The notes beneath the pieces were generated by a model. That model made no database searches and was not told the origin of the DNA. It saw only the letters and a list, made by a program, of their open reading frames with translations. The translations under genes and the position numbers were made by a program. From the sequence record SRR22947725_171: 64,000 nucleotides of DNA. The stretch is one strand, 5' to 3'. Shown here in pieces: positions 48,584 through 64,000 of the stretch (position 1 is its first letter; each line of letters starts with the position of its first letter).

Positions 48584-48599
48584 ATCTTTCTTCCTTCAA

Positions 48600-51014
48600 T
48601 TAACGCATTTTTGATCCAGATGGATCATAAAGTGGCTCCATTACAATAGATGCCTTATGAAACTCACCGAGTATTTCTACTTCAAGTGTTGTTTTGGAAT
48701 CAATCAACTCTACAGGTAAGTAAGTCATCGCAAGTGACCTTTGAACAGAGTGTCCATAACCACCTGAGGTAATATAGGATACACATTCTCCGTTATGCAT
48801 CACCGCCTCGTCACCACTAACATCCGTTTCAGTTTCAATTTGAATCACTGAAAGCTTCTTGGTTGGGCCCTTCATTTTCTCAATGAGGGCTGCTTTTTTC
48901 CCGATAAAGTCTTTATCCCAGTCCACAAAAAAATCAAGACCCGATTCCATTAATGTAAAGTCTGGCCTAAAATCCATAGTCCATGCCCCCCAACTCTTCT
49001 CCAGCCTCATAGACATCAAAGCCCTGCCTCCAAACCACTTAAGACCTAAATCTTCTCCAACCTCTTCTATAGCCTCAAAGAGTTTCAGTTGATACTGAGG
49101 GGCCACATAAATCTCATAGCCAAGCTCTCCAGTAAATGAAATCCTTACGCAGAGCGCTGGCACGCCCCCAACAAATGTATCCCTGATATCTCTGAATTTA
49201 AACCCATCTGAACTGACATCTTCCCGAGTAAGCCTTGTTAATAGTTCTCGAGAGTTGGGTCCTGATATTGCAATACCATGAAAGTCATCTGTCATGTTCT
49301 GATAGACAACGTCTTGAACGCCCTCAAGATGCATCTCAAACCAGCGAAGATGCATATTTTGTGCAACACTGGAGCCAAACAAGTAATAAGTTTCATCGTC
49401 AATGCAGGCCACAGTCAGGTCTCCATTGAGCTTGCCACTCTCCAAAAGCATAGGTGTCAGATTCACTCTTCCAGGCCTTGGAATCCAGCCTGCAAGCACC
49501 TTATTTAAAAATGCTTTAGCGCCCTTGCCAGTGAACTTGTGGTTAGCAAAATTAGCGACTTCACTTGCACCAACAGACGCCCTCACAGCTTCGACCTCCT
49601 TAGCTACGTACTCATGAGATCTTGACCTGTGAAATGTTGGCTCTTCGTAAGCATCCTCAGGGGAGCTGGCAAACCAGAGTACATTTTCAAGGCCAAAAGA
49701 ATCTTGCCATACCGCACCTTTCTGGGTAAGACGGTCATAAATTGATGTTGTTTTCTGACGCCTTCCTTTAGGCAGCGTTTCGTTAGGGAAGGTCATCACA
49801 AAACGTCGTTCATAATTTTCAGATGACTTAATAACCCCCCATTCTGGCGTCGCAAAATCTCCAAAACGTGCAATATCCATCGCCCAAACATCAATCGATG
49901 GCTCTCCTTCAATCATCCATTCTGCTAGCATCTTTCCAACCCCGCCGGCCTGACAAAATCCAGCCATGACGCCAACTGCTGTCCAGTAATTCTTCATTCC
50001 AGGGACTGGACCAATCATGGGATTGCCATCTGGAGAAAAAACGAATGGTCCATTTATTGTATCCTTGATGCCAGCATTCTGAAGTGATGGGATACGCTCA
50101 AAAGCCAAAGCCAATCGATCGGCGATTCGGTCTAAATCTGGCTCCAGCAAATCATGTCCAAACGTTTGCGGAGTCCCATCTAAAGACCAGGGCGTTGACT
50201 GAGGCTCATAGGTTCCTAGTAGAAGGCCTGAGCGCTCTTGTCTGAAATAGATATTCGCTTCATAATCAATACATGCAGGCAATCTCTGCCCCTCTGGAAG
50301 TGCAGTAATCTTATCTATCTCTTCGGTAATTAAGTAATGGTGCTCCATGGGTACAACTGGTAAATGGATACCAGACATGCGTCCCAATTCTCGAGCCCAT
50401 AGCCCTCCAGCATTGACAATATGTTCAGCATGAATATTTCCTTTCTCAGTCACCACATCCCAAGAGCCATCGGGTCTTTGATTCGTTTCAATAACAGGTG
50501 TATGCGTATAAAACTCAGCTCCATGAACTCGTGCTGATTTTGCATAAGCATAGGTCACACCTGACGGATCTATATCACCATCAAGTGGGTCCCATAAGGC
50601 TGCAACATAATTTTCAGGATTAATAAGAGGATGCTTTTCAACCACCTCATCTAAAGAAACAAACTCTTGCTCAAGACCCATTGACCTTGCCTTGGATCTT
50701 TCCCTTTTAAGATAGTCATGCCAGCTCTGGTTAGAGGCCAAATAATATCCTCCAGTGCTATGCATTCCTACAGAGTGCCCTGAGGTCTCCTCAATCTCTT
50801 TATAAAGGTTAATTGTGTAATCTTGAAGTCTGGAAATATTTGGATCAGAACTAATCGTATGAATTTGTCCTGCTGCATGCCAGCTTGAACCCGAAGTTAA
50901 CTCATTTCTCTCAAGTAAGATAACATCCTTCCATCCCATCTTTGCAAGGTGAAAAAGGATTGAGCAACCAACAACGCCGCCTCCAATTACAACCACTCTT
51001 GCCTGATCTTTCAT
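48600..51014 (-). CDS. Dimethylglycine/sarcosine dehydrogenase-like GcvT-family FAD oxidoreductase
   Basis: IGGGVVG, ELTSGSSWHAAG (covalent-FAD His motif), RISFTGELGYE, RLEKS, YDP...R. Confidence 0.9.
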   Translation of the reverse strand: MKDQARVVVIGGGVVGCSILFHLAKMGWKDVILLERNELTSGSSWHAAGQIHTISSDPNISRLQDYTINLYKEIEETSGHSVGMHSTGGYYLASNQSWHDYLKRERSKARSMGLEQEFVSLDEVVEKHPLINPENYVAALWDPLDGDIDPSGVTYAYAKSARVHGAEFYTHTPVIETNQRPDGSWDVVTEKGNIHAEHIVNAGGLWARELGRMSGIHLPVVPMEHHYLITEEIDKITALPEGQRLPACIDYEANIYFRQERSGLLLGTYEPQSTPWSLDGTPQTFGHDLLEPDLDRIADRLALAFERIPSLQNAGIKDTINGPFVFSPDGNPMIGPVPGMKNYWTAVGVMAGFCQAGGVGKMLAEWMIEGEPSIDVWAMDIARFGDFATPEWGVIKSSENYERRFVMTFPNETLPKGRRQKTTSIYDRLTQKGAVWQDSFGLENVLWFASSPEDAYEEPTFHRSRSHEYVAKEVEAVRASVGASEVANFANHKFTGKGAKAFLNKVLAGWIPRPGRVNLTPMLLESGKLNGDLTVACIDDETYYLFGSSVAQNMHLRWFEMHLEGVQDVVYQNMTDDFHGIAISGPNSRELLTRLTREDVSSDGFKFRDIRDTFVGGVPALCVRISFTGELGYEIYVAPQYQLKLFEAIEEVGEDLGLKWFGGRALMSMRLEKSWGAWTMDFRPDFTLMESGLDFFVDWDKDFIGKKAALIEKMKGPTKKLSVIQIETETDVSGDEAVMHNGECVSYITSGGYGHSVQRSLAMTYLPVELIDSKTTLEVEILGEFHKASIVMEPLYDPSGSKMR

Positions 51015-51038
51015 AGTAAATCCATTAATAAACTTTAA

Positions 51039-51090
51039 ATGTTAATTCAAAAAAGAATGAAACTCAAGTTAAAAAATTTAGTCAAAAATA
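51039..51090 (-). promoter_or_regulatory. Sigma70 promoter, copy 1 of a duplicated 52-bp element
   Basis: Minus strand TTGAGT-N17-TAACAT; 45/52 identical to 52662-52713. Confidence 0.7.
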
Positions 51091-51107
51091 TTGAAAAAAT
51101 TTAGCAC

Positions 51108-52628
51108 TTACAGTGGCGCTGCCCCTCCTTCAGAAACTCTTTTTTCAACAAATCCAGAAAGCTCCTCCTCGACCTCAGGAGCAAGCTTAGGCTCTTTATA
51201 ATCTTCTAGAAGCTGCTTCCATATTTTATTAGCCCTTTGGGAAGCCGTTTTGGATCCTGCATCCCTCCATGATTCAAAGTTACGCCAGTCTGATAGCATT
51301 GGATTATAGTGCTCGGTTTCATAGCGATCTAGGGTTTGCTGGGCTGCAAAAAAATGAGAGGCAGGGCCAACTTCTGCAATAGCCTCAACGCCAAGAGTGT
51401 CGCTATTAACTGGCGATGGCATAAGAAATGCCTCCATCATTTGATTCATCTCTGCATCTAAGATGACCTTCTCATATGACGCACAGAGCCCGCCCTCTAT
51501 CCAGCCGTGCCCATGCAAAATAAAGTTCACTTGTCCAAGTAGGCATGCCCACAAAGACATCTGAGATTCATAAACGGATTGCTCATCGGGCGCATTGGAG
51601 GCGTTTGCATTTGAAGCGCGAAGAGGGATTTTATATTTTCTAGCAAGCTGACCACTTGCGATTGTCGCCTGAGTATATTCAGGTGTACCAAATGCAGGGG
51701 AACCAGACTTCATATCCACGTTTGATGTGAAGCTACCATAGATCGCTGGAGCCCCCGGATTAACGCATTGATGAAAAGCAAGGCCAGCAAGTGCCTCTGC
51801 ATTTTGCTGAACGAGTGCTCCTGCAACAGTAATTGGGGCCATAGCCCCTGCCAAAGTGAAGGGGGTATAGATAACAGGCTGATTATGTTCGGCCATTTCA
51901 ATGGCTCCCTCCAAGAGTGCCTTGTCATAAACCAATGGAGAATTCGCATTGACGACCGTCGTAATTGATGGCTCTTTTAAAAGCGTTTCTCTGTCAATAC
52001 CTCTTCCAATTCTAACAATTTCGATGGCATCTAACATTCTCTCGCTGCCGATAGCGTATCCAAATAATGGCTTTGTAGATAAACGAGCTGCTGCCGATAC
52101 TGCATGCAAATGTCGCTCACTAACATCTAAATCACAAGGTTCAACGGGGTATCCTCCTAATGCATGAACCGTATTCAATATCTCTCCGAGCTTAATTAAG
52201 TTTGAATAATCTTCAAAGTTACCTAAGATCCGGCCTCTATCCAGATCGGAGACATTGGGAGCACTCGATACTAGAGTATTGATGACTGATTGGCCACCAA
52301 CATGAACGTGTCTGCCCTTGTGTCTTCCATGAAGAGTAAATTCGCTAGGGGTTGTAGAAATTTTTTCCATCACAAAGTCAGGATCAAACCTAACCCGGCG
52401 GCCATCACTACCAATCATTGCGCCTTCTCTCTTGAGAATTTCGACAGCACGCGGTGACTGGATATCCATTCCAGTATCACACAATACCTTTAATGATGCC
52501 TGATGGATTGCCTCTATCTCATCCTCAGAAAAAATAGACATCGGCTGAAAGGGGTTCTTTTTTTGGCCATAGGGAGCCTGCTGAAAGCTAGTAACCTCTC
52601 TAACGCTTTTACTTCGACCTCTTCTCAT
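51108..52628 (-). CDS. MttB-superfamily methyltransferase, non-pyrrolysine (MtgB-like)
   Basis: EAIHQASLKVL, NANSPL, TPFTLAGAMAP, SNVDMKSGSPAFGTPE, HGHGWIEGGL. Confidence 0.92.
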   Translation of the reverse strand: MRRGRSKSVREVTSFQQAPYGQKKNPFQPMSIFSEDEIEAIHQASLKVLCDTGMDIQSPRAVEILKREGAMIGSDGRRVRFDPDFVMEKISTTPSEFTLHGRHKGRHVHVGGQSVINTLVSSAPNVSDLDRGRILGNFEDYSNLIKLGEILNTVHALGGYPVEPCDLDVSERHLHAVSAAARLSTKPLFGYAIGSERMLDAIEIVRIGRGIDRETLLKEPSITTVVNANSPLVYDKALLEGAIEMAEHNQPVIYTPFTLAGAMAPITVAGALVQQNAEALAGLAFHQCVNPGAPAIYGSFTSNVDMKSGSPAFGTPEYTQATIASGQLARKYKIPLRASNANASNAPDEQSVYESQMSLWACLLGQVNFILHGHGWIEGGLCASYEKVILDAEMNQMMEAFLMPSPVNSDTLGVEAIAEVGPASHFFAAQQTLDRYETEHYNPMLSDWRNFESWRDAGSKTASQRANKIWKQLLEDYKEPKLAPEVEEELSGFVEKRVSEGGAAPL

Positions 52629-52661: not shown

Positions 52662-52713
52662 ATGTTAATTTAAAAAAGTATCAAACTCAAGTTAAAAAAA
52701 TTAAGTAAAAATA
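52662..52713 (-). promoter_or_regulatory. Sigma70 promoter, copy 2 of a duplicated 52-bp element
   Basis: Minus strand TTGAGT-N17-TAACAT; 45/52 identical to 51039-51090. Confidence 0.7.
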
Positions 52714-52734
52714 GTGAGCTGTGTTCAGCTCACT
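52713..52734 (-). terminator. Intrinsic terminator after the SnoaL-like gene
   Basis: AGTGAGCTG-TGTT-CAGCTCACT 9-bp stem, followed on the minus strand by ATTTTT, 10 bp after the stop at 52744. Confidence 0.65.
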
Positions 52735-52743
52735 GATAAGTTT

Positions 52744-53757
52744 TTAAGTTCTTGGAGTCTTTTTGATTCGATCTAAAATATCAACACCCTGTTGATTCCA
52801 AAAATGCAAGAGATCAATAAAAATCCAATTTTCAGAGAGTTTATCTCCTTCACGACGATACATATCTATAACCCTCATATCTCCAGGTTTTTCAGAAGCA
52901 GGCATTCCCATAAAACCACCTGTAGGAGTGAGTGTGAGATTAGGCCATCCAAAAAAACCTCCAAAATGACCTTCCGCAAGTTTACAAAGATGGCCATTAG
53001 AGATACGATCCTTAAAACCAGCCCTAAATGGGCCAGAGTGCTGCTCAGCATACCTTTCAATTGTATAACTTGAGCCAATACCAGCAGGACCCCACCAAAT
53101 CATATCTTCGTTCCAGCTAGCTCTAAGTTCATCAACTAATGATATTTTTCCTGTGTGCTTCCAACCTTTAATATCTTCAATCATAAAGTTTATTGAAGCT
53201 AGTGTCTTTTCACCTTCTTCCATATTTTGCTCTTCGTGCAACAAGCCCTCATGAGTCATCGGTCCTGGCTGAACAAGATGGGCACCTGTTTGAGGTGGAA
53301 AGGGGTTTAATCCAACCTGCAGCATGACATGTGGAATATCAAAAAACATTGCAGTTTCAGTAATTTTTCCATTTTCAACTTTATTAAACTCACAGTAACG
53401 AAGGAAGGCCATTTTTCTTGAGGGCTGAATTCCAAGCCATTCATTATCAAATAGACCCATAAGATTTCCCATAGAAATTACCCAGACAGATTCAAATCCG
53501 TCAATTTGATTTTTTCCTGCAATGAAAATATCCATACGTCTTTGAATATTTTTAAATGCATGACGAAATGGCTGCCAGAAAATTTCAGAAACCTCCCTGG
53601 CATCCGAAATCTCATTAAAAGGATGGAAACCTCTCCAAATATAATCCTCACTAATATAGTTTTGTAAAACTTTTGTAATATCATTACCATTCGCAGAATC
53701 TAGTGCTTTGTAATAATCACGAATTAAGTTTTTTTCGTTTTGAAAATTTGTAGTCAT
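52744..53757 (-). CDS. SnoaL-like/ester cyclase protein (tandem NTF2-like domains)
   Basis: RRMDIFIAG, LRYCEF..VENGKI.E, MIWWGPAGIG, GWPNL, MRVIDMYRREGDKLSENW. Confidence 0.75.
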   Translation of the reverse strand: MTTNFQNEKNLIRDYYKALDSANGNDITKVLQNYISEDYIWRGFHPFNEISDAREVSEIFWQPFRHAFKNIQRRMDIFIAGKNQIDGFESVWVISMGNLMGLFDNEWLGIQPSRKMAFLRYCEFNKVENGKITETAMFFDIPHVMLQVGLNPFPPQTGAHLVQPGPMTHEGLLHEEQNMEEGEKTLASINFMIEDIKGWKHTGKISLVDELRASWNEDMIWWGPAGIGSSYTIERYAEQHSGPFRAGFKDRISNGHLCKLAEGHFGGFFGWPNLTLTPTGGFMGMPASEKPGDMRVIDMYRREGDKLSENWIFIDLLHFWNQQGVDILDRIKKTPRT

Positions 53758-53759
53758 AT

Positions 53760-55364
53760 TTATTCCTTTTCTAATATCATTCTAGCTCCTCGCTCAGCAA
53801 TCATCATCGTTGGTGCGGAAGTATTTCCACTCACGATGCTTGGCATGATTGAGGCATCTATAACCCGGAGATTACTCAACCCTTTAACCTTTAAATTATC
53901 TGGTGAAACGACTGATAGATCGTCAGTACCCATTTTGCAGGTCCCTACAGGATGATAGACGGTAACTGCAGTCTTACGAATATATGCCAATAGATCCTCA
54001 TCTGACTGGATAGATTTTCCTGGAGCCATCTCCTCTCCTCGAACTTCGTCAAACTCTTCAGATGATAAAACTTCTCTTGCTTTTTTAATTGCCTCAACAA
54101 TGGTTGCCTCATCCCTGGTATCAGATAAAAAATTGTGGTCAATCAGCGCCTTGTGTATGTCTCCATCCTTCTTAATTTTTACTGATCCTCTACTATGGGG
54201 TCTTAATAAACATGTAAAGAGTGAGTATCCATGCCCAAACTCAAACTTTCTGCCTCGATGACTCCGGTATATAGGCGTGAAGTGAAACTGAACGTCGGGA
54301 TAATCAGGTTGGCCAAGTTTTGTGTTTGCAAAACCTCCAACTTCAACATAATTACTCGTCCACCAACCCATCCTCCTCAGAAGAAAATTGAATGGAGAGG
54401 TAATGACTTTTGGCAACAGAGACCTCCAAGAAATACCAATTGACTCTGCTTTGTTTGATCGAACTGTGACCATAGTATCGAGGTGATCTTGAAGATTCTC
54501 ACCAACTCCTGGAACATTGTGTTGACATCTAATCCCTTCGGCTTCAAGCTCTTCCTTATTCCCTATCCCTGAGGATAAAAGTATCCTTGGTGACTCAATG
54601 GCACCAGCAGATAGCACAATCTCTTTATTGCAATGTAATTCTTTATCAACACCATTCACTTGAATCTTCAAACATTTAGCAGTATCACCTTCAATCTCAA
54701 TTGATTGGACTCTGGCATGAGTCATTATGGTTAGATTAGTCCTCGAAACAATAGGCTTAATAAAGGCTCTATACGAGTTCACTCGAGTGCCTTTATCCTG
54801 AGTAACCTTGTAATCACCCAGACCTAACTGAGAGACGCCATTAAAGTCTGTGTTATATGCAAGTCCTATATGATTTCCCGCACGGATAAAGCGTTGGGCC
54901 GTTTTATTGATGTCTTGTTGAATAACGACTGGCCACTCTCCATCCATCGAATGGTAAGTAGGGTCTCCGCCTGTTTGATCGTTCTCAAGTTTTTTAAAGA
55001 TTGGCAAAACATCATTATAAGACCAGCCCTTGCATCCTAGTCTTTCCCAATGATCATAATCATTCTTATTACCACGGATATAAATCATGCCATTAATGGA
55101 GCTCGATCCTCCAAGACACCTACCTCGATTGACCTTTATTAATCGGTCATTCAAATGTTTTTGGGGAGCGGTCTTATAGTTATAATCAAGTTTTTTATGG
55201 TCAATGGCCATAGAAAGACCGGCTGGGATTTTGACCCATGGACTCTTATCGCTACCACCGCCCTCAATAAGGCAAACAGTATTTTCAGGGTTTTCACTCA
55301 GACGATTGGCTAATACGCATCCAGCAGAACCTGCACCAATGATAATATAATCAAACGTGGACAA
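53760..55364 (-). CDS. GMC family oxidoreductase
   Basis: GAGSAGC, GRCLGGSSSING, GENLQDH, YHPVGTCKMG, GNTSAP. Confidence 0.92.
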   Translation of the reverse strand: MSTFDYIIIGAGSAGCVLANRLSENPENTVCLIEGGGSDKSPWVKIPAGLSMAIDHKKLDYNYKTAPQKHLNDRLIKVNRGRCLGGSSSINGMIYIRGNKNDYDHWERLGCKGWSYNDVLPIFKKLENDQTGGDPTYHSMDGEWPVVIQQDINKTAQRFIRAGNHIGLAYNTDFNGVSQLGLGDYKVTQDKGTRVNSYRAFIKPIVSRTNLTIMTHARVQSIEIEGDTAKCLKIQVNGVDKELHCNKEIVLSAGAIESPRILLSSGIGNKEELEAEGIRCQHNVPGVGENLQDHLDTMVTVRSNKAESIGISWRSLLPKVITSPFNFLLRRMGWWTSNYVEVGGFANTKLGQPDYPDVQFHFTPIYRSHRGRKFEFGHGYSLFTCLLRPHSRGSVKIKKDGDIHKALIDHNFLSDTRDEATIVEAIKKAREVLSSEEFDEVRGEEMAPGKSIQSDEDLLAYIRKTAVTVYHPVGTCKMGTDDLSVVSPDNLKVKGLSNLRVIDASIMPSIVSGNTSAPTMMIAERGARMILEKE

Positions 55365-55367
55365 TGA

Positions 55368-56249
55368 CTAGCCCTTGACTGCACCAGCTGTTAATCCACT
55401 AACAAGCTGTCTTTGGAAAAACATAACCAGAAGAAACAATGGAATTATGGAGGATACAACTGCTGCAACCGCAAACATAATATTACCTTCTGTTTGAGTA
55501 GTGCCCATAAAGCTGGCAATTTTAGGGACCATAGTTTGGTTTTCTTGAGATAGCAGTATCCCTGTAACAGCAAAATCATTATATGCCAAAAGAAATGAGA
55601 AGAGTCCAGCAGTAATAACTCCTGGCCACATCACTGGAATAATGACATGTCGAAATGCTTGAAACTGACTACAGCCATCTACCTTTGCACTCTCATCAAG
55701 CTCTTTCGGAATTGTTTGAAAAAATGAGTGCAACATCCACAATGTAAATGGCTGGTTTATAGCCACTAAAACAATAATAGTGGTCGGAAGTGTTCCCCAA
55801 ACATTCCAGTCATAGAAGGGTTGTAGATACCCTGAAACAAGAGTGATTGGGGGCAATGCACGAAAAACAAGTGCAATTATTAATAGCCAAAATGAATAAC
55901 GAAAACCAGACCTTGAAAGGGCATAGCCACCTAAAGTTGCAAGAGTTAATGATGTGAGTACCGTACAAAAACAAACTATCGCTGTATTAAGAAAAGCGCG
56001 CCAAAACTCTTCTTGGATCCAAGCCCCATCATAACCTGCGCCCGTAAAAGACTTTCCATGTACTACTTGCGTTCTTACCCCAGAAAAAACATTAGTCCAG
56101 TCTAACTTAGAGAAAAAATCCAGCTCTACTTTGAATGAGCCCCACATAGTCCACATAAATGGAAAAGCTGCCAGAATAAACCAGAACAATACAAAGCCAT
56201 ATATTAATATCTGGAGTGCTAGTGGTCTTTTTATTTGATTTGAAGTCAT
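55368..56249 (-). CDS. Carbohydrate ABC transporter permease (MalG-like)
   Basis: EAA loop IPKELDESAKVDG, ends GLTAGAVKG. Start 56249 preferred (ORF track start 56273). Confidence 0.92.
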   Translation of the reverse strand: MTSNQIKRPLALQILIYGFVLFWFILAAFPFMWTMWGSFKVELDFFSKLDWTNVFSGVRTQVVHGKSFTGAGYDGAWIQEEFWRAFLNTAIVCFCTVLTSLTLATLGGYALSRSGFRYSFWLLIIALVFRALPPITLVSGYLQPFYDWNVWGTLPTTIIVLVAINQPFTLWMLHSFFQTIPKELDESAKVDGCSQFQAFRHVIIPVMWPGVITAGLFSFLLAYNDFAVTGILLSQENQTMVPKIASFMGTTQTEGNIMFAVAAVVSSIIPLFLLVMFFQRQLVSGLTAGAVKG

Positions 56250-56250
56250 A

Positions 56251-57276
56251 TTATTTCTGAGGATTGAATTCACGCCATGTTCTAATCAAAACTGGCATTA
56301 GAAGTATGATGACACCAATTATTGTCAACACAGATGTTGTAGCAGCGGATGACATAAGCCTGATTTCTTGACCAATATCATTCCATATAATCCATGAAAG
56401 AGAGGTCGCATGTGCCGAGGCACTAAAACCAACTATTGGCTCAAATACTCGGAAATTATCCATCAGTTGAATTAAAGCAACAAAAGCTACTAATGGAGAT
56501 AAATGGGGCACAACGACATGATAAGTTTGCTGTAAACGAGAGGCTCCATCAATCATTGCTGCTTCTATAGTTTCTTGCGGAACAGTCTGGAGTCCAGCAT
56601 AAAAAACAATGAAGGCAAAGGGGGCAGAATGCCAAACACCATATACAATGAGTGTTATCCAGGTTAGACCAGTTGATGCCTTTAATGACAGATTAGGATC
56701 TGCAAATAATTCTTGGAGTCCTGAACCAATAATACCTCGTGAATCAATCATCCAAAACAGAATCAAAGAACCAACTAGAGGAGTTACAATCATTGGTAGC
56801 AATGAAAAGAAAACCATAAGCCCTTTAAGATGTCGATGCAGCGAGTTGACTGCCAGTGCAATTATCAATCCAAATAATATAACTAATGGTGTTACCACTA
56901 AGACAAAAGTTATAGTGAATCCCATTGCTCTATAGAATGGAAGATTATTAAGACCTGACACAAAATCAATTAAGTTTGTCTTATTCTCCCAAAGCTCACC
57001 GACCTCTTTAAAGGCTAGATGGTTTCTATCAGTATAGATTTGAAATCCAACCCACTTGCCTTTTGGCTGCTCTTCTTTGATTTGTTTACTCGCCTCATGA
57101 TCAATCGTTGTTTCAGATTTACAACCAAATGGATCACACGATTCAACAACAACCAGAACCGCATCATGAGGTGTATGAAGTGACTGACTTACAATCGAAG
57201 TTAAGGGCAGGGCAATGAACAAAAACATTGCTAAGGCTGTAGGTAAAAAGAACCAGAAAAAAGTCTTATGCTTCAT
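56251..57276 (-). CDS. Carbohydrate ABC transporter permease (MalF-like)
   Basis: AGLQTVP...EAAMIDGAS, TM segments. Confidence 0.9.
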   Translation of the reverse strand: MKHKTFFWFFLPTALAMFLFIALPLTSIVSQSLHTPHDAVLVVVESCDPFGCKSETTIDHEASKQIKEEQPKGKWVGFQIYTDRNHLAFKEVGELWENKTNLIDFVSGLNNLPFYRAMGFTITFVLVVTPLVILFGLIIALAVNSLHRHLKGLMVFFSLLPMIVTPLVGSLILFWMIDSRGIIGSGLQELFADPNLSLKASTGLTWITLIVYGVWHSAPFAFIVFYAGLQTVPQETIEAAMIDGASRLQQTYHVVVPHLSPLVAFVALIQLMDNFRVFEPIVGFSASAHATSLSWIIWNDIGQEIRLMSSAATTSVLTIIGVIILLMPVLIRTWREFNPQK

Positions 57277-57311
57277 ATGGAAATAATAAGATTAGATCAA
57301 CTCAATTATAC

Positions 57312-57344
57312 AAAAAAAGAAAAGGGCATGTATAACACACGCCC
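57312..57344 (-). terminator. Intrinsic terminator/attenuating hairpin between the binding protein and permease genes
   Basis: Minus strand GGGCGTGT-GTTAT-ACATGCCC followed by TTTTCTTTTTTT. Confidence 0.75.
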
Positions 57345-57375
57345 TAATCTTAGGAGATAAACAACTTATAAAAGC

Positions 57376-58611
57376 TTATAAATAACCTTTTTCTTTCGCA
57401 GCTGTTGTGTATGCTGCTTCTAAGCCAGCTAAAGCTTGCTCAGCAGTTTCTTTACCTTGCATGAAGTCTACTATTTCAACTCCTGCAGCTGAATGCATTA
57501 GACCTGCATATGGCAACATTGGATAGGGCTTAGTTCCCATTGCAGCAGCAGCAAATACGCCTGCAGCAGCTGGAGTAGGCTGATAACCATCAATTAGCCA
57601 AACAGCTTGTGGTGAAGTCGTATCGTTCAACATTTCTGGACGAATTGCATGCATCAAAGCCATAAAAGTAGCCTCTGCATCTGCATCTGAAATGTTCTTA
57701 GCTACAGTAAATCCATCCCACCATAATGTTGAAGCTGCAGTTGACCCGCCGCCAACTGTCATTGGGCCAGCAGTAGCTGTAGCAGCTACAACAGCTGCAT
57801 CAACCTCGTCACCTCTAAGGGCTCCAATACGTGATCCCCACATATTCATAAGTGCAACATTGCCAGCTTTCCATTCAGCACTCGTAGCATTTGAGTCATG
57901 CGTTAGGAAGTCAGGGTTCATATATTCAGATAATGCTTTCATCATATTAAGCGCATCAATGCCATGCTGATTGTTCACAGCAATCTCAGCTGTACCAGGC
58001 TTAAAGAACTCACCGCCATGACCAATATACATGTTGACAAATTCTTCTGCTAGGTTCCAACCGGCTGCATAAGCACCGCCAAGAGGGTACTTCATCCCTA
58101 AGTTATCAAATTTAACAATTTTTGCAGCAGCCGCTAACATTTCTTCATAAGTAGTCGGTACTGCAATTCTTAACTCTTTCAAAACATCTGATCTATACGT
58201 AAGATGTTGAGCATTCGCCATAAAGGCAATACCCATAATATTTCCATCAATTGTAACTAACTGGCTTTTCTGAAGACCTTGTCCATGTTTTTCAACGAGA
58301 TCATTCAAAGGTCTAATCACATCATTGTTCATTAGTGCAACAATAGAGGAGTTTGCAACAATCGCTGATGTAAATTCAGCTGGATTACCAGTCATACCTG
58401 GAAGATTAATTTTTTGATGATCAGCTGTTAAGTTTGTTTCAACTGTAACGCCATCACCAGCACACTCCATTGCTCCCGCTCCAATAGTTTGGATCGCTGG
58501 GAACTCATTTCCAACAATACTAACTCTTCCTTCAGAAATGCCGCAACCCGCCCAAGCACTTGAAGCTAGAGTAGTAAGAGCTACAACTGTAGCTATCTTT
58601 TTTAAAAACAT
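57376..58611 (-). CDS. ABC transporter substrate-binding protein (carbohydrate cluster)
   Basis: Signal peptide ending ASSAWA, LTYRSD.L, VPTTYEE. AGGAG RBS precedes ATG 58611. Confidence 0.88.
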   Translation of the reverse strand: MFLKKIATVVALTTLASSAWAGCGISEGRVSIVGNEFPAIQTIGAGAMECAGDGVTVETNLTADHQKINLPGMTGNPAEFTSAIVANSSIVALMNNDVIRPLNDLVEKHGQGLQKSQLVTIDGNIMGIAFMANAQHLTYRSDVLKELRIAVPTTYEEMLAAAAKIVKFDNLGMKYPLGGAYAAGWNLAEEFVNMYIGHGGEFFKPGTAEIAVNNQHGIDALNMMKALSEYMNPDFLTHDSNATSAEWKAGNVALMNMWGSRIGALRGDEVDAAVVAATATAGPMTVGGGSTAASTLWWDGFTVAKNISDADAEATFMALMHAIRPEMLNDTTSPQAVWLIDGYQPTPAAAGVFAAAAMGTKPYPMLPYAGLMHSAAGVEIVDFMQGKETAEQALAGLEAAYTTAAKEKGYL

Positions 58612-58675
58612 AATATCACTCCTTTTTTTCAATTAAATACTCATTAATAATACATCATATGAAACAGTAAAACTT

Positions 58676-58746
58676 TTTTGCATACGATTGCAAAATATTA
58701 TAACACAGTAAAATATCTTTTATCTATAATTTTGCATTCGTATTCA
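58676..58746 (-). promoter_or_regulatory. Extended -10 promoter flanked by two LacI-family-like operators
   Basis: Minus strand TGtTATAAT (-10 at 58697-58702). TGCATACGATTGCA at 58679-58692 and TGCATTCGTATTCA at 58733-58746. Confidence 0.6.
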
Positions 58747-58938
58747 GCAAATAGTATATATTAATTTTTTAAATCGTAACACAAAATAGGACAATCAATA
58801 TTCCTTCCAGAGGACCCCAGCTTGAAATGGGAATTTCTACAAAAATATTTAATAACAAAATAGGATAAATTATTTTTAATAAAAAATTAAATTTAAAGAG
58901 AATTATAATTTACCTTTTTATAAAAACCTTTTTATAGC

Positions 58939-61359
58939 ATGGATGATGGCCACGAATCAGATCTAGACCAAGCAAAAATTGATGCTCTTATATTTTTGTT
59001 TTCAAGTGGCCAAATAGAAGATGCTATTCTTAAAGCCGATGAATTAATTCAAAAATATCCCCAAGACTCAAAAATATACAATATTAAAGGTGCCTGCCTA
59101 GCAGCGGTAGGTGAATCAAAACTTGCAATCACTTCCTATAAGAAATCAATCGATATCAGCCCAGAATATGCTGAAGCTCATAACAATTTAGGTATTACGT
59201 TTCAGCATATTGAAGAATTTGATAAGGCAGTACTCTGTTTTGAAAAAGTGCTCACTTTGAGCCCAGATTCTATTGATGCGTTTAATATACTTTGCAATGC
59301 AATTAAAGAACTTAATCAACCATCAAAAGCTTTGGAGAGCTTCAAAAGAATTATTAATATAAAACCTAATCTTGCTGAGGCGCACTTCAATCTTGGAGTT
59401 GCACTTCAGGAGGCTGGTGAACTAGAAGACTCAGTCACTAGTTATGAACAAGTCATTAACCTTAATCCAAATTTTGTTGAAGCATATTACAACCTTGGAA
59501 TCATAATGCAAGAGCTGAATAGAAAGCATGAATCTTTTGGCGTCTTTGAAAAAGCACTCATGATTGATTCAGAAAATTTAAATGTTCTCAATAATCTGGG
59601 TACGCTCTACAGTGAAACTGGACAATTTGATAAAGCGATCATAAATTTTGAGAAAGTAATTAATATTGACCCAGATAATATCAGTGCGCTCAATAATCTA
59701 GGAATCACTCATGGTAAAACTGGACAATTAGATGATGCCGTCACTTATTTTGACAAGGCACTCAATATTGACCCACATGATACAAACATTCTTAATAACC
59801 TTGGTATCACATATGCTGATTTTAACCAAGAGGGTGATGCAGTTAGAAGTTATGAAAAGGCAATAAAAGTAAAGCCAGATGATGTTGAGGCTTATGTCAA
59901 TCTTGGAGAAAGTCTTGGCTTGTTAAAACAAAAAAAGAGTGCACTAAAATATTTCGAAAAAGCCTTTTCTCTTGAGCCTGAAACTGAGCTTCTCCTTGGG
60001 AAGATCTTAAACACTAAAATGGCACTTTGTAATTGGAATGAACTTACAATTAATCTTGAAATATTGGCCAATAAAATTAACAGTGATAAAAAAGTTATAA
60101 CACCTTTCTCTCTATTAGCGCTAATAGATGACCCAGTATTACAGCTAACTAATGCCAAAATCTATGCAAGAGAATTCCCTCAAGATTTAACATTACCTAA
60201 AATTAAGACCTATGAAAATCATACGAAAATTCGTATTGGTTATTTTTCAGCTGATTTTCATAATCATCCAACAATGCATTTAATTGCAGAGTTATTTGAG
60301 AAACACGATAAGAGTAAATTTGAACTGATTGCTTTTTCTTTTGGTCCAGATTCTAATGATGAATGGAGAAAAAGAGCTGTTTCGAGTTTTAATGAATTTA
60401 TTGATGTAAGATTCAAATCTGACCTAGATATTGCCCTAATGGCGAGAGAAATGGAAATTGATATTGCAGTTAACCTCGGGGGTTACACACAATCCTCAAG
60501 AACGGAAATTTTTGCAAAATTAGCTGCGCCAATTCAGGTGAGTTATCTAGGTTTTCCAGGGACAATGGCTCTAGACTACATAGATTATTTAATCGCAGAC
60601 TACACCCTAATACCTTTAAATATGCAAAAACATTACTCAGAAAAAATTGTCTACATGCCTGACAGTTATCAGGTAAATATTTCAGATAGGGATTTCTCTA
60701 ATAAGGTAATAACACGTGCACAACATGGACTACCTGAAAAAGCCTTTGTCTTTTGTTGTTTCAATAATAATCATAAAATCACACCATATACCTTTAATAG
60801 TTGGATGCGAATTCTCAAACAAGTTAAAGGGAGTGTGCTCTGGTTATTTGAAAATACTGAGGATATGGTTGAGAACATATCAATTGAAGCAGAAAAATTT
60901 GGAATAGATAGAAATCGTTTAGTTTTTGCTAAGTATATGCATGTTGAGGATCACTTAAATAGACTCAAATGTGCCGATATTTTTCTTGACACTCTGCCAT
61001 ATAATGCTCATACGACAACGAGTGATGCTCTTAGAATGAGGCTTCCTGTTTTAACCCTTATTGGTAATTCATTTGCAAGTAGAGTTGCTGCAAGCCTTTT
61101 AAATGCGGTAAATTTACCTGAGCTAATTACCACTTCTCAGGAACAGTATGAGTCCTTTGCTATTAATTTAGCTTTAAATCCTAAAAAGCTTACTGCCATT
61201 AGAGAGAAACTCGACAACAACTTAGCTTCGGCCCCGCTATTTAATTCTCTTTCATTCACACAAAACTTAGAAAAAGGATTCGAAGAGATGCTCCAGCGCT
61301 ATAAGTCGGGTCTTAAGCCAGATCACCTATACCTCAAAGAAGAGCATAGTCTTAAATAA
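58939..61359 (+). CDS. TPR-repeat protein with O-GlcNAc transferase/SPINDLY-type (GT41) catalytic domain
   Basis: About 9-10 TPRs (AEAHNNLG...), RIGYFSADFHNHP, APIQVSYLGFPGT, FCCFNNNHKI, DIFLDTLPYNAHTT.SDAL, FASRVAASLL. Confidence 0.9.
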   Translation: MDDGHESDLDQAKIDALIFLFSSGQIEDAILKADELIQKYPQDSKIYNIKGACLAAVGESKLAITSYKKSIDISPEYAEAHNNLGITFQHIEEFDKAVLCFEKVLTLSPDSIDAFNILCNAIKELNQPSKALESFKRIINIKPNLAEAHFNLGVALQEAGELEDSVTSYEQVINLNPNFVEAYYNLGIIMQELNRKHESFGVFEKALMIDSENLNVLNNLGTLYSETGQFDKAIINFEKVINIDPDNISALNNLGITHGKTGQLDDAVTYFDKALNIDPHDTNILNNLGITYADFNQEGDAVRSYEKAIKVKPDDVEAYVNLGESLGLLKQKKSALKYFEKAFSLEPETELLLGKILNTKMALCNWNELTINLEILANKINSDKKVITPFSLLALIDDPVLQLTNAKIYAREFPQDLTLPKIKTYENHTKIRIGYFSADFHNHPTMHLIAELFEKHDKSKFELIAFSFGPDSNDEWRKRAVSSFNEFIDVRFKSDLDIALMAREMEIDIAVNLGGYTQSSRTEIFAKLAAPIQVSYLGFPGTMALDYIDYLIADYTLIPLNMQKHYSEKIVYMPDSYQVNISDRDFSNKVITRAQHGLPEKAFVFCCFNNNHKITPYTFNSWMRILKQVKGSVLWLFENTEDMVENISIEAEKFGIDRNRLVFAKYMHVEDHLNRLKCADIFLDTLPYNAHTTTSDALRMRLPVLTLIGNSFASRVAASLLNAVNLPELITTSQEQYESFAINLALNPKKLTAIREKLDNNLASAPLFNSLSFTQNLEKGFEEMLQRYKSGLKPDHLYLKEEHSLK
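59587..59811 (+). repeat. 102-bp-period tandem TPR-coding DNA repeats
   Basis: CTCAATAATCT at 59587 and 59689, CTTAATAACCT at 59791. First two units share AAACTGGACAATT and AATATTGACCCA. Confidence 0.75.
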
Positions 61360-61397
61360 TTAATACTTTTAATAACAAATTAGTTTTTAAAGTCACT

Positions 61398-62378
61398 CTA
61401 CTTCTGCCAATTCGGTAGTGAGTCATATCCCAACTGCAATAAAAGATGCGGTACATCGACAAACACCCAATTTTCCACTAAAAGCTCATTTTCACGGCGC
61501 CACCAATCACAAACACGCATAAAAACTCGCTCGTTGATTGGGCCTTGTCCTAGGAAAGGTTTGATGTTAACCCCTGTCAAGGATGGCCAGCCTCCTGAAC
61601 AGGTGTAATTACCCTCGCCAAATCTTGTGAAGTGTTTTGTAAAGCCATTGTTTTTTGTTCCGCCTGACCATCCTTCAAACTGAGATTCAAACGGGACCTG
61701 AAATGAAGCGAATTCGTCAACACCAATAAAAGAGCCAAACGCACCCGGTCCATACCACATCATATTCTTATGCCAATAGGGTCGCCAAGCCTCATCCTTT
61801 GTCGCTAATTTATCAAGCATATCAGTCACAATTTGATAGCTTTGCTGGCCTTCAGCAGGATCTAAAGAACTTTTGAGAACGCCATCTTGTGATGCAGGCC
61901 CTTGAATTAGTCCAGTGTAACCTCGCGAAAGTCCTGGGCCCATATCCAAAGGCCACTGATTACAAGCAATCATCAGTTCAGGAATGTCTAGATAGATATA
62001 GCTTTCAACAGCTTGGCCTTTCTCAATACGGTGGAATTCACCATAGCGAATATAACTAAGCGTTTTCGTCGCTTTAAGGCCAATCCAATCTCTTACAAAT
62101 TGCCCCACATAATAACCTGTTGAGCTAATCCAATTTTGTCCCTCAAATTCTCCAGCCATGAAGATATCATCGCGCCGATAAAGGCCTTCAAATGAGTATT
62201 GAAGTGGCAATAAAAATTCATTAAGGTAGACATCAGCACCTTTTAACTGATTAAACGGATGGACAACATTAATGTCAGCATCCTCACTGTAAAAACTCGC
62301 AATGTTCGAAGAGAAGTCTCCCGGATGGCTCAATGCATTTGCATATGTTAAATAAAGTTTACGATTATTTATTGACAT
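61398..62378 (-). CDS. SnoaL-like/ester cyclase protein (tandem NTF2-like domains), paralog of 52744-53757
   Basis: RRDDIFMAG, IRYGEF, MMWYGPGAFG, GGWPSL, MRVCDWWRRENELLVENW. Confidence 0.75.
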   Translation of the reverse strand: MSINNRKLYLTYANALSHPGDFSSNIASFYSEDADINVVHPFNQLKGADVYLNEFLLPLQYSFEGLYRRDDIFMAGEFEGQNWISSTGYYVGQFVRDWIGLKATKTLSYIRYGEFHRIEKGQAVESYIYLDIPELMIACNQWPLDMGPGLSRGYTGLIQGPASQDGVLKSSLDPAEGQQSYQIVTDMLDKLATKDEAWRPYWHKNMMWYGPGAFGSFIGVDEFASFQVPFESQFEGWSGGTKNNGFTKHFTRFGEGNYTCSGGWPSLTGVNIKPFLGQGPINERVFMRVCDWWRRENELLVENWVFVDVPHLLLQLGYDSLPNWQK

Positions 62379-62437
62379 AATTTTTTCTTTTAAATTAGAT
62401 AATCCTTAGATCAACTTAGTGCATAAATGTTTTAAAA

Positions 62438-63142
62438 CTAGGTACGGGATTTTTCAAAATCCTCCCATGCTTTTTTAAAATCATCAAAACTAAATTCTGT
62501 TTTTTCTGCAGGATCTAATATGAGCCTCTCAGATGCAAACAACTTGTGAATTGAATCTTTCAAAATAGGTATAACTTCAGAAGGAATTACAACAGCTCCA
62601 TGACGATCAGCATGAATTAACTCGCCTGGTGCCACAGTCATACCAAAGATATTTACAGGGGTATCTATCTCACGCACATGGACAAAACCATGACTAGGAC
62701 CAACCGATCCTGCAACAACTGGAAAGGCTTCAGCAAGATCCCCTAAGTCTCTCATTACTCCATTTGTTAGAGTTCCTGATAGTCCAAACCCTTTGTGAAC
62801 TTTTGTATTAATCTCACCCCAATAAGCGCCAATACAATCAGGATAGTCAACATCCTCAATTACAGTGACCATTGGCCCATCAACCTCGGACATATATCGG
62901 TAGTAATTCATTCTGCGCTCTTTAATAATATCTTGATTTTCGGTCGGCGGATCAAGTGCAGCAATTTTTGCAGTCTTGGCAAAACCAACTATAGACCCAC
63001 CTTCAGGATCTGAGCAAATCATTGTGCCTCGTGTAAACTTTGAAAAACCCCTTTTGCCTTGAGCCACTTCGATAGCATTACAGACCGTTGGCGTATCAAC
63101 TGAGCGAAGGAGTGTGAGTAATTCTGGATCTAATTTAGCCAT
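62438..63142 (-). CDS. RraA/HMG-aldolase family protein
   Basis: DTPTVCNA, AYWGEIN, TNGVMRDL, V.PGELIHADRHGAVVIP. Confidence 0.85.
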   Translation of the reverse strand: MAKLDPELLTLLRSVDTPTVCNAIEVAQGKRGFSKFTRGTMICSDPEGGSIVGFAKTAKIAALDPPTENQDIIKERRMNYYRYMSEVDGPMVTVIEDVDYPDCIGAYWGEINTKVHKGFGLSGTLTNGVMRDLGDLAEAFPVVAGSVGPSHGFVHVREIDTPVNIFGMTVAPGELIHADRHGAVVIPSEVIPILKDSIHKLFASERLILDPAEKTEFSFDDFKKAWEDFEKSRT

Positions 63143-63819
63143 TTTTTTAATACCTCTGTTGTTTCTTTTGGTTGCTCTAATGTAGGAATATGACCAGCAT
63201 TGTTAATAATTTTTAACTCTGAATCATTGATTATACTATGCATCAACTCATGCCTTTCTACTGGACATAATATATCGTTTGAGCCACATATCACCAATAC
63301 TGGAACCGCAATTAAGCGCAATGTACTTTGTTGGTCTACTCTTGTTTTCAAGGCCTTTGATTGATTTATAAATACTTCTGGGCCCATCGATTTAGCCATC
63401 TCCATACAGGTATGGAGGATACTCTCTCGATTATCACTAGCATCTAAATAGTTAGGCTTCATCTCATCACGCATGACATCAACAAGCTTGCCTTCCTTTG
63501 CAGCCTTCATTTGAGGGTCTCTCATCGCTTTAACCTCTTCAAGCTCCGCTTTATGATTGGTATCCATAAGCACCAACTTTTCAATTCGACTGGGCTCCTG
63601 GGCGTACATCTCCATAGCGACAATACCTCCCATAGAATGACCTAAGAGATGAAACTTGGGTGGTGATTTTTTGAGTACTTCAGCTGCTAAGTCCTGAACA
63701 GTTGAATGTCCAGAAATATCTGCGACAATAATCCTTATTGAATCGCTAAGTCCTTCAATTTGTGGTGCAAAAATACGTTCATCACACATCATTCCAGGAA
63801 TCATAACAAGAGTCTTCAC
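63130..63819 (-). CDS. Alpha/beta-fold hydrolase
   Basis: GHSMGG nucleophile elbow, GSND, AGHIP; GTG start. Confidence 0.9.
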   Translation of the reverse strand: MKTLVMIPGMMCDERIFAPQIEGLSDSIRIIVADISGHSTVQDLAAEVLKKSPPKFHLLGHSMGGIVAMEMYAQEPSRIEKLVLMDTNHKAELEEVKAMRDPQMKAAKEGKLVDVMRDEMKPNYLDASDNRESILHTCMEMAKSMGPEVFINQSKALKTRVDQQSTLRLIAVPVLVICGSNDILCPVERHELMHSIINDSELKIINNAGHIPTLEQPKETTEVLKKWLN

Positions 63820-64000
63820 TATTGATTGCTCGCAATCTTAGCACCCTCGGATAGTGACTCTAGCTTAGCAAATGCAATGTCTGGATCCACTGCACCAAAA
63901 CCTGCAAAAGTACCAAAACCGCAATCTGAACCCGCAATGACTCTCTCTTTTCCGACTATATTGACAAATTTATTAATTCGTTCAGCCACCAACTCAGGAT
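63819..64000 (-). CDS. C-terminus of a cobalamin-independent methionine synthase II family (MetE-like) protein, partial, not in ORF track
   Basis: Hand translation gives PELVAERINKFVNIVGKERVIAGSDCGFGTFAGFGAVDPDIAFAKLESLSEGAKIASNQ*, with a DCGF Zn-ligand motif. Its TAG overlaps the GTG of the hydrolase. Confidence 0.85.
   Translation of the reverse strand, partial: PELVAERINKFVNIVGKERVIAGSDCGFGTFAGFGAVDPDIAFAKLESLSEGAKIASNQ

Follow-up and report, generated by a model that had tools for sequence, protein, structure and literature searches.

The DNA stretch SRR22947725_171 (64,000 nucleotides, referred to below as the window) ends in a set of import and catabolic genes, located at positions 52,744 to 64,000, which we characterize here. 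These genes are the distal part of a 17-gene LacI regulon arranged in two operons, and we have high confidence that this is a real, conserved and uncharacterised catabolic regulon. Judging from its gene content and genomic context, it probably encodes a pathway which imports and degrades mycosporine-like amino acids (MAAs), the algal sunscreens, of the shinorine, porphyra-334, mycosporine-glycine and palythine types, with 4-deoxygadusol as their core. An earlier note on this DNA had proposed an undescribed import-and-catabolism system and this proposal is supported by the conserved gene set outlined below.

Genes in the window were called as open reading frames (ORFs) and assigned via Pfam and NCBIfam family scans; all coordinates are those of the 64,000-nucleotide stretch. 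For genes beyond position 64,000, G001 was used as a stand-in, a 1.7-Mb genome that is the nearest to the window and matches it here at 96% DNA identity. The gene order in G001 starts with a MalK-type ATPase, a single-domain SnoaL protein (167 amino acids), a HisD-like dehydrogenase, a tandem SnoaL protein (351 amino acids), a short-chain dehydrogenase/reductase (SDR) and LacI, continues with a tandem SnoaL protein (322), a bicupin, a MetE-like protein (376), a hydrolase, an RraA-like protein and a tandem SnoaL protein (326), and ends with a substrate-binding protein (SBP), two permeases, a GMC oxidoreductase and a further tandem SnoaL protein (337). SnoaL types are named by these lengths in the following. 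Beyond the window edge, G001 thus adds three further SnoaL paralogs, the HisD-like dehydrogenase, the SDR and the cupin, and both the ATP-binding cassette (ABC) ATPase and the LacI regulator that had been expected past position 64,000 are found upstream. In a search with the 326 gene the best named relatives were Candidatus Thioglobus records, suggesting a host of the SUP05 type.

Gene co-occurrence was counted in the 80 best of the 125 genome loci retrieved with the 326 gene, each gene being scored as present at 40% identity or more. Loci stop at 10 kb or where the contig does, and roughly half of the 80 are lone 326-type genes. The SBP was present in 35 loci, the permeases in 35, the ATPase in 33, the cupin in 25, LacI and the HisD-like gene in 24 each, the 337, 322 and 167 types in 25 each, the 351 type in 17, the MetE-like gene in 23, the SDR in 19, the hydrolase in 18, RraA in 15 and the GMC gene of the window in 6. 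The genes therefore occur together far beyond chance, and the lack of co-occurrence that the earlier note had named as grounds for dismissal was not observed. Annotated full clusters are present in Ruegeria conchae and Octadecabacter arcticus 238. The system is conserved across SUP05 bacteria and roseobacters, with an operator in common. Among genomes of the same abundant genus (SUP05-type), 23 of 37 carry the 337-type gene, compared with 0 of 24 others, and the cupin was detected in 21 of 401 sampled Pseudomonadota genomes. No description of the cluster or of genes for MAA breakdown was found in the titles and abstracts searched, with subscription journals and supplements outside this search.

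The palindrome TGCAWWCGWWTGCA occurs twice, 54 bp apart, flanking a promoter-like site ahead of the SBP gene, and once ahead of the ATPase gene of G001. From its palindromic form and its position we infer that it is the LacI operator. It was found in 36 of 43 cluster loci and in only 1 of 39 lone-326 loci. As the motif was read from the window itself, any chance statistic for the window would be circular and the real test is this contrast between cluster and lone-gene loci, where related cluster loci do not count as independent. A one-mismatch operator-like site at 46982-46995 lies inside an aldose 1-epimerase ORF (46183-47232), is also present in G001, and may be due to chance.

The 326- and 337-type proteins of the window share 29% identity. 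An AlphaFold model of the 326 type (predicted local distance difference test score 89.8, 54 sequences) contains two NTF2 domains, and both Pfam and the model, with Z scores up to 17 and a root-mean-square deviation of 2.5 A over 139 residues, identify the NTF2 cone fold. PhzA/B, a fold neighbour, catalyses an amine-ketone condensation; the other neighbours are Lsd19, the MonBI-BII epoxide hydrolases and SnoaL-type cyclases. The fold search yielded no close solved relative of the 326 type and is compatible with any activity. All of these proteins, as well as LdpA and PcfL, share the NTF2/SnoaL fold with the cluster proteins, whose tandem layout resembles that of Lsd19. In contrast to the Lsd19-type enzymes, the cluster SnoaLs are only 8-20% identical to them, pack their domains differently (whole-chain TM score ca. 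0.35) and are found in a catabolic context together with importers; they are known here from sequence and model. LdpA and PcfL are described as NTF2 deformylases or lyases of lignin pathways in passages of PMC12997858. Among 214 tandem homologs, at least 95% share fifteen residues, which include H256, D298, N310, W311 and D315 of the second domain; H256, D298 and D315 (337 numbering) belong to the predicted active site. We propose that the 326 type may be a C=N hydrolase and that the 337 type may be an imine hydrolase that releases serine or threonine. Three types are often found without core genes (337: 76 of 109; 326: 52 of 80; 322: 31 of 57), and two only rarely (167: 3 of 29; 351: 4 of 25), being accompanied by the core in 26 of 29 and 21 of 25 cases, respectively. 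A lone 326-type gene without the operator is unusually well conserved, at 76-83%, in many roseobacters and in Granulosicoccus (L021-L087).

Many algae, cyanobacteria and corals synthesize MAAs, whose bioconversion by bacteria has been reported since the 1990s. According to the work of Dunlap and Shick, as cited in passages of PMC3083659, Vibrio harveyi cleaves off by hydrolysis the hydroxy-amino acid that shinorine and porphyra-334 carry, which leaves mycosporine-glycine. This led to the prediction, set beforehand, that V. harveyi holds a SnoaL homolog, and such a protein was indeed found: P0129, named as V. harveyi, belongs to a 215-member Vibrio cluster (40 members read) and is ca. 49% identical to the protein encoded at 52744-53757. 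Its relatives occur in 12 of 401 Gammaproteobacteria. The reported hydrolysis would fit both one- and two-SnoaL cassettes; it is a phenotype without genes in the passages of PMC3083659, and its link to the cluster is putative. The passages of a 2026 cyclitol review (PMC12904256) likewise contain no genes for MAA catabolism.

The 337 type is present in 24 plasmid-collection records, six of them from Vibrio. The Vibrio cassette comprises a serine dehydratase, a Na+ symporter, a major facilitator superfamily (MFS) transporter, one SnoaL, a porin and LacI, and is found in several genomic contexts. In V. europaeus, the 337-type gene is accompanied by MFS, porin, LacI, sodium symporter and L-serine ammonia-lyase genes and by no core genes. 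Across the best 80 of 177 metagenome loci found for P0129, we counted an MFS transporter in 41, a sodium symporter family protein in 40, a 322-type SnoaL in 30 and a serine dehydratase in 13. Two loci, L124 and L125, encode P0129 at 100% identity, and the dehydratase of L125 matches a V. harveyi-named protein at 100% identity and copies of four further Vibrio species at 98-100%. Overall, the cassette dehydratases of V. alginolyticus, V. harveyi, V. aestuarianus, V. campbellii and V. vulnificus share 98-100% identity, whereas other copies on Vibrio replicons are 81-84% identical, so the cassette version looks like a dedicated mobile copy. Serine dehydratase genes were found in 14 of 181 loci, from three lineages (10 Vibrio-type, 3 gut clostridial-type, and L187); the gut clostridial-type enzymes have split subunits, and one also lies beside GcvPB. 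Further, Phaeobacter piscinae, a carrier of the SnoaL-only form, has a Na+/alanine-glycine carrier, and in V. pelagius sarcosine oxidase adjoins the SnoaL gene. These signs of amino-acid release in the related cassettes make an amino-acid conjugate a likelier substrate than a plain sugar. The context evidence says that a SnoaL-only step frees serine from the substrate, that the substrate has a transferable methyl group and a primary alcohol that can be oxidised, and that its final form is a 4-hydroxy-2-oxo acid.

Related cassettes vary further. A clostridial-type cassette of five genes, which encode two tandem SnoaLs, an MFS transporter, a sodium symporter and LacI, is present in gut and sediment metagenomes (L143, L145, L150, L158-L160, L167-L175, L201-L204), with some clostridial-type loci adding a tetratricopeptide repeat (TPR) protein (7 loci), DUF711, rhodanese or VTT genes. 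Peptidase_M19 genes (membrane dipeptidase family), often paired, lie beside SnoaL and ABC genes in L177, L179, L182, L195 and L200; these enzymes could release the amino acid from a ring-opened amide.

The nearest solved relatives of the HisD-like enzyme are the HpsN proteins (362 bits) of 2,3-dihydroxypropane-1-sulfonate (DHPS) catabolism. As stated in passages of PMC11382572, HpsN is defined by a G-R-Y-A/S-H motif containing the sulfonate-binding His126, and HisD by G-S-A-P-L. The cluster enzyme carries neither motif and has GKFPM instead (31 of 33 sequences; GKYPL and GKYPM in one each), while passing the cut-off of the broad TIGR00069 domain. The catalytic and zinc residues Q251, H254, E319, H320, D353 and K354 are kept in 33 of 33 sequences and H413 in 32. 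This combination of a distinct motif with an intact catalytic and zinc site suggests a third specificity class. The enzyme is 44% identical to the HpsN of G001 itself, which also has a third HisD-family gene (31% identical). Like the DHPS enzyme HpsN (PDB 8v35, 8wwe; passages of PMC11382572), it shows the HisD fold, the zinc ligands and the catalytic Glu-His-Asp, and it has an adjacent SDR and regulator in the same marine hosts. Unlike HpsN, it has GKFPM, ABC instead of tripartite ATP-independent periplasmic (TRAP) import, and five NTF2 paralogs, a MetE-like protein, a cupin and an aldolase around it. HpsN genes have hpsO and hpsP together with suyAB, xsc or cuyA as neighbours; at the cluster loci an SDR adjoins, and neither a zinc alcohol dehydrogenase (Zn-ADH) nor a sulfolyase recurs. 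DHPS catabolism was rejected because the enzyme lacks the His126 motif and G001 has a separate DHPS locus, and the sulfur-containing substrate suggested by the earlier note was given up on the same grounds. This separate locus (L218:5248-13610, C1 ca. 219-228 kb) encodes TRAP, GntR, Zn-ADH, SDR and HpsN proteins, its HpsN scoring 683 bits to 8v35; inspection of its sequence further revealed HpsO-, HpsP- and UxaA/SuyB-like genes and another GMC gene alongside.

In the MetE-like protein, the zinc ligands H243, C245, E277 and C343 are kept in 25 of 25 sequences and in Halobellus, and the homocysteine-binding residues S11, E63 and D197 in 25 of 25 based on the alignment to 3rpd and motif spacing. 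The roles of these residues in core methionine synthases are given in passages of PMC7857596. Retention of all seven zinc and homocysteine residues upholds the methyl-transfer element of the earlier note. The G001 protein scores below all NCBIfam cut-offs (best 93 bits compared with 406), and no DUF1852 gene for a MesX partner is present among the cluster genes. Similar to the Mes synthases MesA-MesD (PDB 3rpd; passages of PMC7857596), the protein is a single barrel with four zinc and three homocysteine residues. It differs from them in that it matches MesD (3rpd) only at E 1e-5, is encoded in a catabolic operon without MesX, and would use a small-molecule O-methyl group as its proposed donor. 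Judged by its residues, we propose that it may be an O-demethylase passing CH3 to homocysteine. A corrinoid protein and/or a URO-D/MtaA-type methyltransferase is encoded in 8 loci, without MetE in the anaerobe-type L152, L153, L186, L187 and L188 and beside MetE in L019 and L085. In the SUP05 single-cell locus L019:11200-13225, the corrinoid and URO-D/MtaA-type pair follows the 337-type gene behind the cluster operator motif. A plasmid of the archaeon Halobellus limi (L091:11605-17998) carries five consecutive SnoaLs and a MetE-like protein with all seven functional residues.

Aldolases of the 4-hydroxy-4-methyl-2-oxoglutarate/4-carboxy-4-hydroxy-2-oxoadipate (HMG/CHA) type carry a Gly...Arg-Asp active-site motif. 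The RraA-like protein keeps G109, R131, D132 and D179 in 16 of 16 sequences. The role of the active-site arginine is described in passages of PMC5065237, which class both the RraA (HMG/CHA aldolase) and the HpcH/HpaI enzymes as class II pyruvate aldolases. RraA was found in 19 loci and HpcH/HpaI in 13, with both together in 0 of 181. The kept active-site residues and the replacement of RraA by HpcH/HpaI elsewhere bear out the aldol-cleavage element of the earlier note. Against the LigK equivalog the protein scores weakly at 30.2 bits, below the cut-off of 304.5, and no ligABCIJ or gal-type neighbours of the gene were found among the cluster loci. It thus shares the RraA fold, the Arg-Asp pair and the proposed CHA or analogous substrate with LigK/GalC of protocatechuate 4,5-cleavage and gallate degradation (passages of PMC5065237), and departs from them in score and in lacking upstream aromatic pathway genes in the cluster.

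The remaining enzymes were analyzed in the same manner. The hydrolase keeps S62 and D182 of its triad in 23 of 23 sequences and H210 in 21 of 23, and is proposed to hydrolyse a ring C-C bond or a lactone. Genes of lactonase families are accessory, Amidohydro_2 being present in 10 of 80 loci and SMP-30 in L195, as would be expected for a hydroxymethyl acid that lactonises. Acireductone-dioxygenase-like cupins have a 3-His-1-Glu metal site, which differs from the site of the cluster cupin, where H76, H78 and E82 are joined by R120 in place of the third histidine in 29 of 29 sequences; its PDB matches are weak (E at least 0.002). The SDR is closest to KduD. In the Vibrio loci L125 and L126, the core consists of hydrolase, cupin, SDR, HisD-like enzyme and HpaI. 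The GMC protein falls short of choline dehydrogenase BetA (TIGR01810: 491.6, cut-off 732.1), and a second clade, ca. 34% identical, is present in 12 loci. As the window's ortholog was counted in so few loci, GMC oxidation is an accessory activity and not the core step it had been taken for; possibly, it acts on amino-alcohol side chains. As far as motifs and scores can tell, the pathway is outside every family tested, each membership test failing on a defining feature or a cut-off.

Based on the structure of the MAA ring, an MAA core that has lost its amino acid, been demethylated, had its CH2OH oxidised and its ring opened would give 4-carboxy-4-hydroxy-2-oxoadipate. This compound is a substrate of RraA-fold aldolases (passages of PMC5065237). 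Passages of PMC3083659 further describe the methoxyl group of MAAs and the hydrolysis of mycosporine-glycine to a beta-diketone and glycine, and cite that bacteria convert MAAs into mycosporine-glycine as well as 4-deoxygadusol. In the scheme we propose, the ABC system would import the zwitterionic MAA and the NTF2/SnoaL paralogs would hydrolyse its C=N or enaminone bonds, releasing serine, threonine, glycine or amino alcohols. Separate paralogs would serve separate substituents, with the 337 type taking off the hydroxy-amino acid. The MetE-like protein would transfer the ring O-methyl to homocysteine, yielding methionine, and hydrolase, cupin and SDR would open and oxidise the beta-diketone/reductone ring. 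The HisD-like enzyme would oxidise the CH2OH beside the tertiary alcohol to COOH (4 electrons), and the RraA-fold aldolase would finally split 4-carboxy-4-hydroxy-2-oxoadipate or a close analogue into pyruvate and oxaloacetate. Organisms with SnoaL and transporters only would harvest the amino acids and export the chromophore. In its full form, namely complete MAA mineralisation by a new family of tandem-NTF2 imine/enaminone hydrolases with one member per amino substituent, methionine formation from the sunscreen O-methyl without folate or B12, a CHA-aldolase end point as known elsewhere from aromatic catabolism, and Vibrio and gut-clostridial cassettes that harvest amino acids and excrete mycosporine-glycine or deoxygadusol, we consider this scheme evenly balanced between right and wrong.

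Several observations weigh against MAA breakdown. With thousands of genes in V. harveyi and its relatives, the presence of an ortholog is weak evidence by itself. Serine dehydratase is missing from the Vibrio cassettes L097, L132, L136 and L137 and from every one of the 80 loci retrieved with the 326 gene, including those of SUP05 bacteria and roseobacters, and the gut copy may belong to a resident glycine/serine operon. Around lone 326-type genes, no function in amino-acid catabolism recurred among the 115 of 131 listed neighbour proteins that were scanned, the rest being mostly same-family representatives, shadow ORFs or a fragment. The MetE-like gene is absent from the plasmids of Paracoccus alcaliphilus and Mesorhizobium, which are complete and otherwise hold the core, their chromosomes being outside the search, and from within the 17-kb Vibrio core loci L125 and L126. 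Mutual exclusion of RraA and HpaI is confounded by kinship and incomplete loci, and two of the HpcH calls (L070, L187) may be unrelated. With arginine in place of the third histidine, a dioxygenase role of the cupin is not established, and the same holds for a common inducer since the operator motif is rare in Vibrio (2 of 15) and clostridial-type loci (1 of 18). Finally, gut and soil cassettes would need a dietary or a fungal/cyanobacterial source of MAAs.

Four other substrates were weighed against MAAs. The system may instead act on one or several other methylated amino-acid conjugates, for example algal or animal enamines or Amadori-like compounds, by the same logic of release, demethylation and aldol cleavage. 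Serine dehydratase, aldolase swap and methyltransferase swap constrain features of the substrate and not the molecule, and the gut, sediment and soil carriers together with the paired Peptidase_M19 in 5 loci would suit an amide-containing compound. We nevertheless judge this unlikely, as no other abundant marine class is known to combine serine and glycine substituents, an activated methyl group, a carbinol CH2OH and the variety implied by five paralogs, and the V. harveyi phenotype known from passages of PMC3083659 fits the one-enzyme cassette. The earlier view of a methylated sugar or cyclitol, oxidised by GMC, SDR and HisD-like enzymes, rearranged by SnoaLs acting as isomerases, dehydratases or deformylases and then cleaved by the aldolase, appears improbable. 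It would account for the carbohydrate-type ABC system with LacI, the KduD-like SDR and the lactonase-family accessory gene, and LdpA and PcfL (passages of PMC12997858) demonstrate that NTF2 proteins can be lyases. Yet it leaves unexplained the SnoaL-only cassettes with serine dehydratase and MFS exporter and no sugar catabolic gene; the GMC gene is accessory, the cluster has no kinase, and the unactivated methyl ether of a sugar is a poor donor for MetE-type enzymes.

Two further pathways are both very improbable. A sulfonate route related to DHPS, sulfoquinovose or cysteinolate catabolism can draw on the HpsN kinship of the HisD-like enzyme and on one weak SBP match to the sulfoquinovosyl-binding SmoF (E 7.8e-5), but GKFPM in place of GRY(A/S)H removes His126, neither sulfolyases nor sulfite exporters are recurrent in the cluster, and G001 devotes the separate locus described above, with its own HpsN, HpsO-, HpsP-, TRAP- and SuyB/UxaA-like genes, to this task. 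Methoxylated aromatics feeding into the end products of protocatechuate 4,5-cleavage would agree with the RraA/LigK-type aldolase and with NTF2 lyases that act on lignin dimers (passages of PMC12997858), and Halobellus limi carries genes for a DesA/LigM-like demethylase and a catechol 2,3-dioxygenase-like protein ca. 9-11 kb from the five SnoaLs and the MetE-like gene. However, aromatic ring-cleavage dioxygenases, LigI and LigJ are not recurrent in the bacterial clusters, the transporter is of the carbohydrate type, and the aromatic block of Halobellus has its own regulator and an unrelated ABC system. The upstream aldolase, VOC, GcvT-like and ABC genes of Halobellus limi were also considered as pathway substitutes and dropped, as they look like part of a separate aromatic block; of this locus, the five SnoaLs and the MetE-like gene were counted.

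The combination of LacI, an ABC importer and catabolic enzymes is a known architecture, and what is new here is the pathway itself, together with the V. harveyi ortholog, the link to a mobile serine dehydratase, the swaps of aldolase and methyltransferase, the operator and the motif test against HpsN. If the regulon does degrade MAAs, it would provide the genes for MAA breakdown, so far a gap in the marine cycles of carbon, nitrogen and methyl groups, along with genes that mark MAA turnover, NTF2 and MetE chemistry that is new, and enzymes with which natural sunscreens could be tailored. SnoaL-only cassettes would then explain MAA interconversion in animal guts. Should the substrate be a different one, the orphan pathway would still be abundant, its operator defined and its carriers culturable.

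Features of the window are summarized in Table 1. Every minus-strand gene named in the earlier note was recovered, as was the terminator. The co-oriented run described there stands as far as these minus-strand genes are concerned, while its continuity does not, since a plus-strand TPR/GT41 (glycosyltransferase-41) ORF splits the first SnoaL gene from the SBP gene. Instead of a single run there are two operons, and the second has a promoter-like site and an operator pair of its own. Likewise, the two SnoaL genes are not in tandem and lie 7.6 kb apart, each encoding a two-domain tandem NTF2 protein. The SBP has no Pfam or NCBIfam match and is SBP_bac_1-like by Atlas, with weak PDB matches to sugar SBPs. 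PDB sequence searches with SBP, SDR, cupin and RraA gave no ligand-defining relative, Atlas searches returned only generic names, and the viral contigs searched contained no match. In the gammaproteobacterial loci L206, L207-L208 and L210, a sodium symporter and a protein of ca. 800 amino acids, by inspection similar to TonB-dependent receptors, replace the ABC system.

Table 1. Features of the regulon and its surroundings in the window.
Feature	Position	Strand	Remarks
MetE-like protein, C-terminal 59 amino acids, ending in SDCGF	63819..64000	-	NCBIfam match alone weak, E 2.7e-4
Alpha/beta hydrolase, Ser-Asp-His triad	63130..63819	-	Family scans; 1-nt overlap with MetE stop
RraA-like protein, RraA-fold class II pyruvate aldolase (HMG/CHA-aldolase-like)	62438..63142	-	PF03737, above cut-off
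Tandem NTF2/SnoaL protein, 326 type (326 amino acids), final gene of operon 1	61398..62378	-	
Insertion with TPR and glycosyltransferase-41 gene, outside the system	58790..61376 (ORF 58939-61359, 806 amino acids)	+	
Putative LacI-type operator, distal	58733..58746		TGCAWWCGWWTGCA with 1 mismatch
Sigma70-like promoter, between both operators	58697..58726	-	Consensus match only, 10/12, extended -10 TG
Putative LacI-type operator, proximal	58679..58692		Perfect TGCAWWCGWWTGCA match, 54 bp from distal
ABC SBP, SBP_bac_1 type	57376..58632	-	Likely start ATG 58611, AGGAG before
Stem-loop in gap between SBP and first permease	57323..57345	-	
ABC permease 1, carbohydrate-uptake type	56251..57276	-	Family scans
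ABC permease 2	55368..56273	-	Family scans
GMC flavoprotein oxidoreductase, accessory	53760..55364	-	Family scans, below BetA cut-off
Tandem NTF2/SnoaL protein, 337 type (337 amino acids)	52744..53757	-	Ortholog of lone Vibrio enzyme
Hairpin terminator closing operon 2	52712..52735		Called on both strands

The insertion is a polymorphic passenger, unrelated to the system, placed exactly between the two operons. It spans ca. 2.6 kb with a GC content of 0.32-0.35 compared with ca. 0.40 in its surroundings, encodes an O-GlcNAc-transferase-like GT41 protein and carries no mobility gene. G001 lacks it, the window matching both of its flanks there with 19 bp in between, so that the insertion replaces 18-19 bp. 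It is also absent from 10 of 10 SUP05-type loci, where the gap is about 185-370 bp. Among contigs from public runs, the empty joint (58789 to 61377) was found in X5 and X15 and the inserted form also in X15. Contigs from RNA runs cover the cluster in 3 of 3 runs and the insertion barely; as contig depth can neither rank genes nor prove transcription, this was not used as evidence. A distant island of G001 (C1 1.246-1.257 Mb) holds a tandem array of paralogs, 44-49% identical.

Downstream of the second operon, at 47267-52628, the window carries methylamine and osmolyte genes encoding an MttB-family methyltransferase, a dimethylglycine-dehydrogenase-like flavoprotein and an M24 protein, the latter presumably resembling the dimethylsulfoniopropionate lyase DddP.

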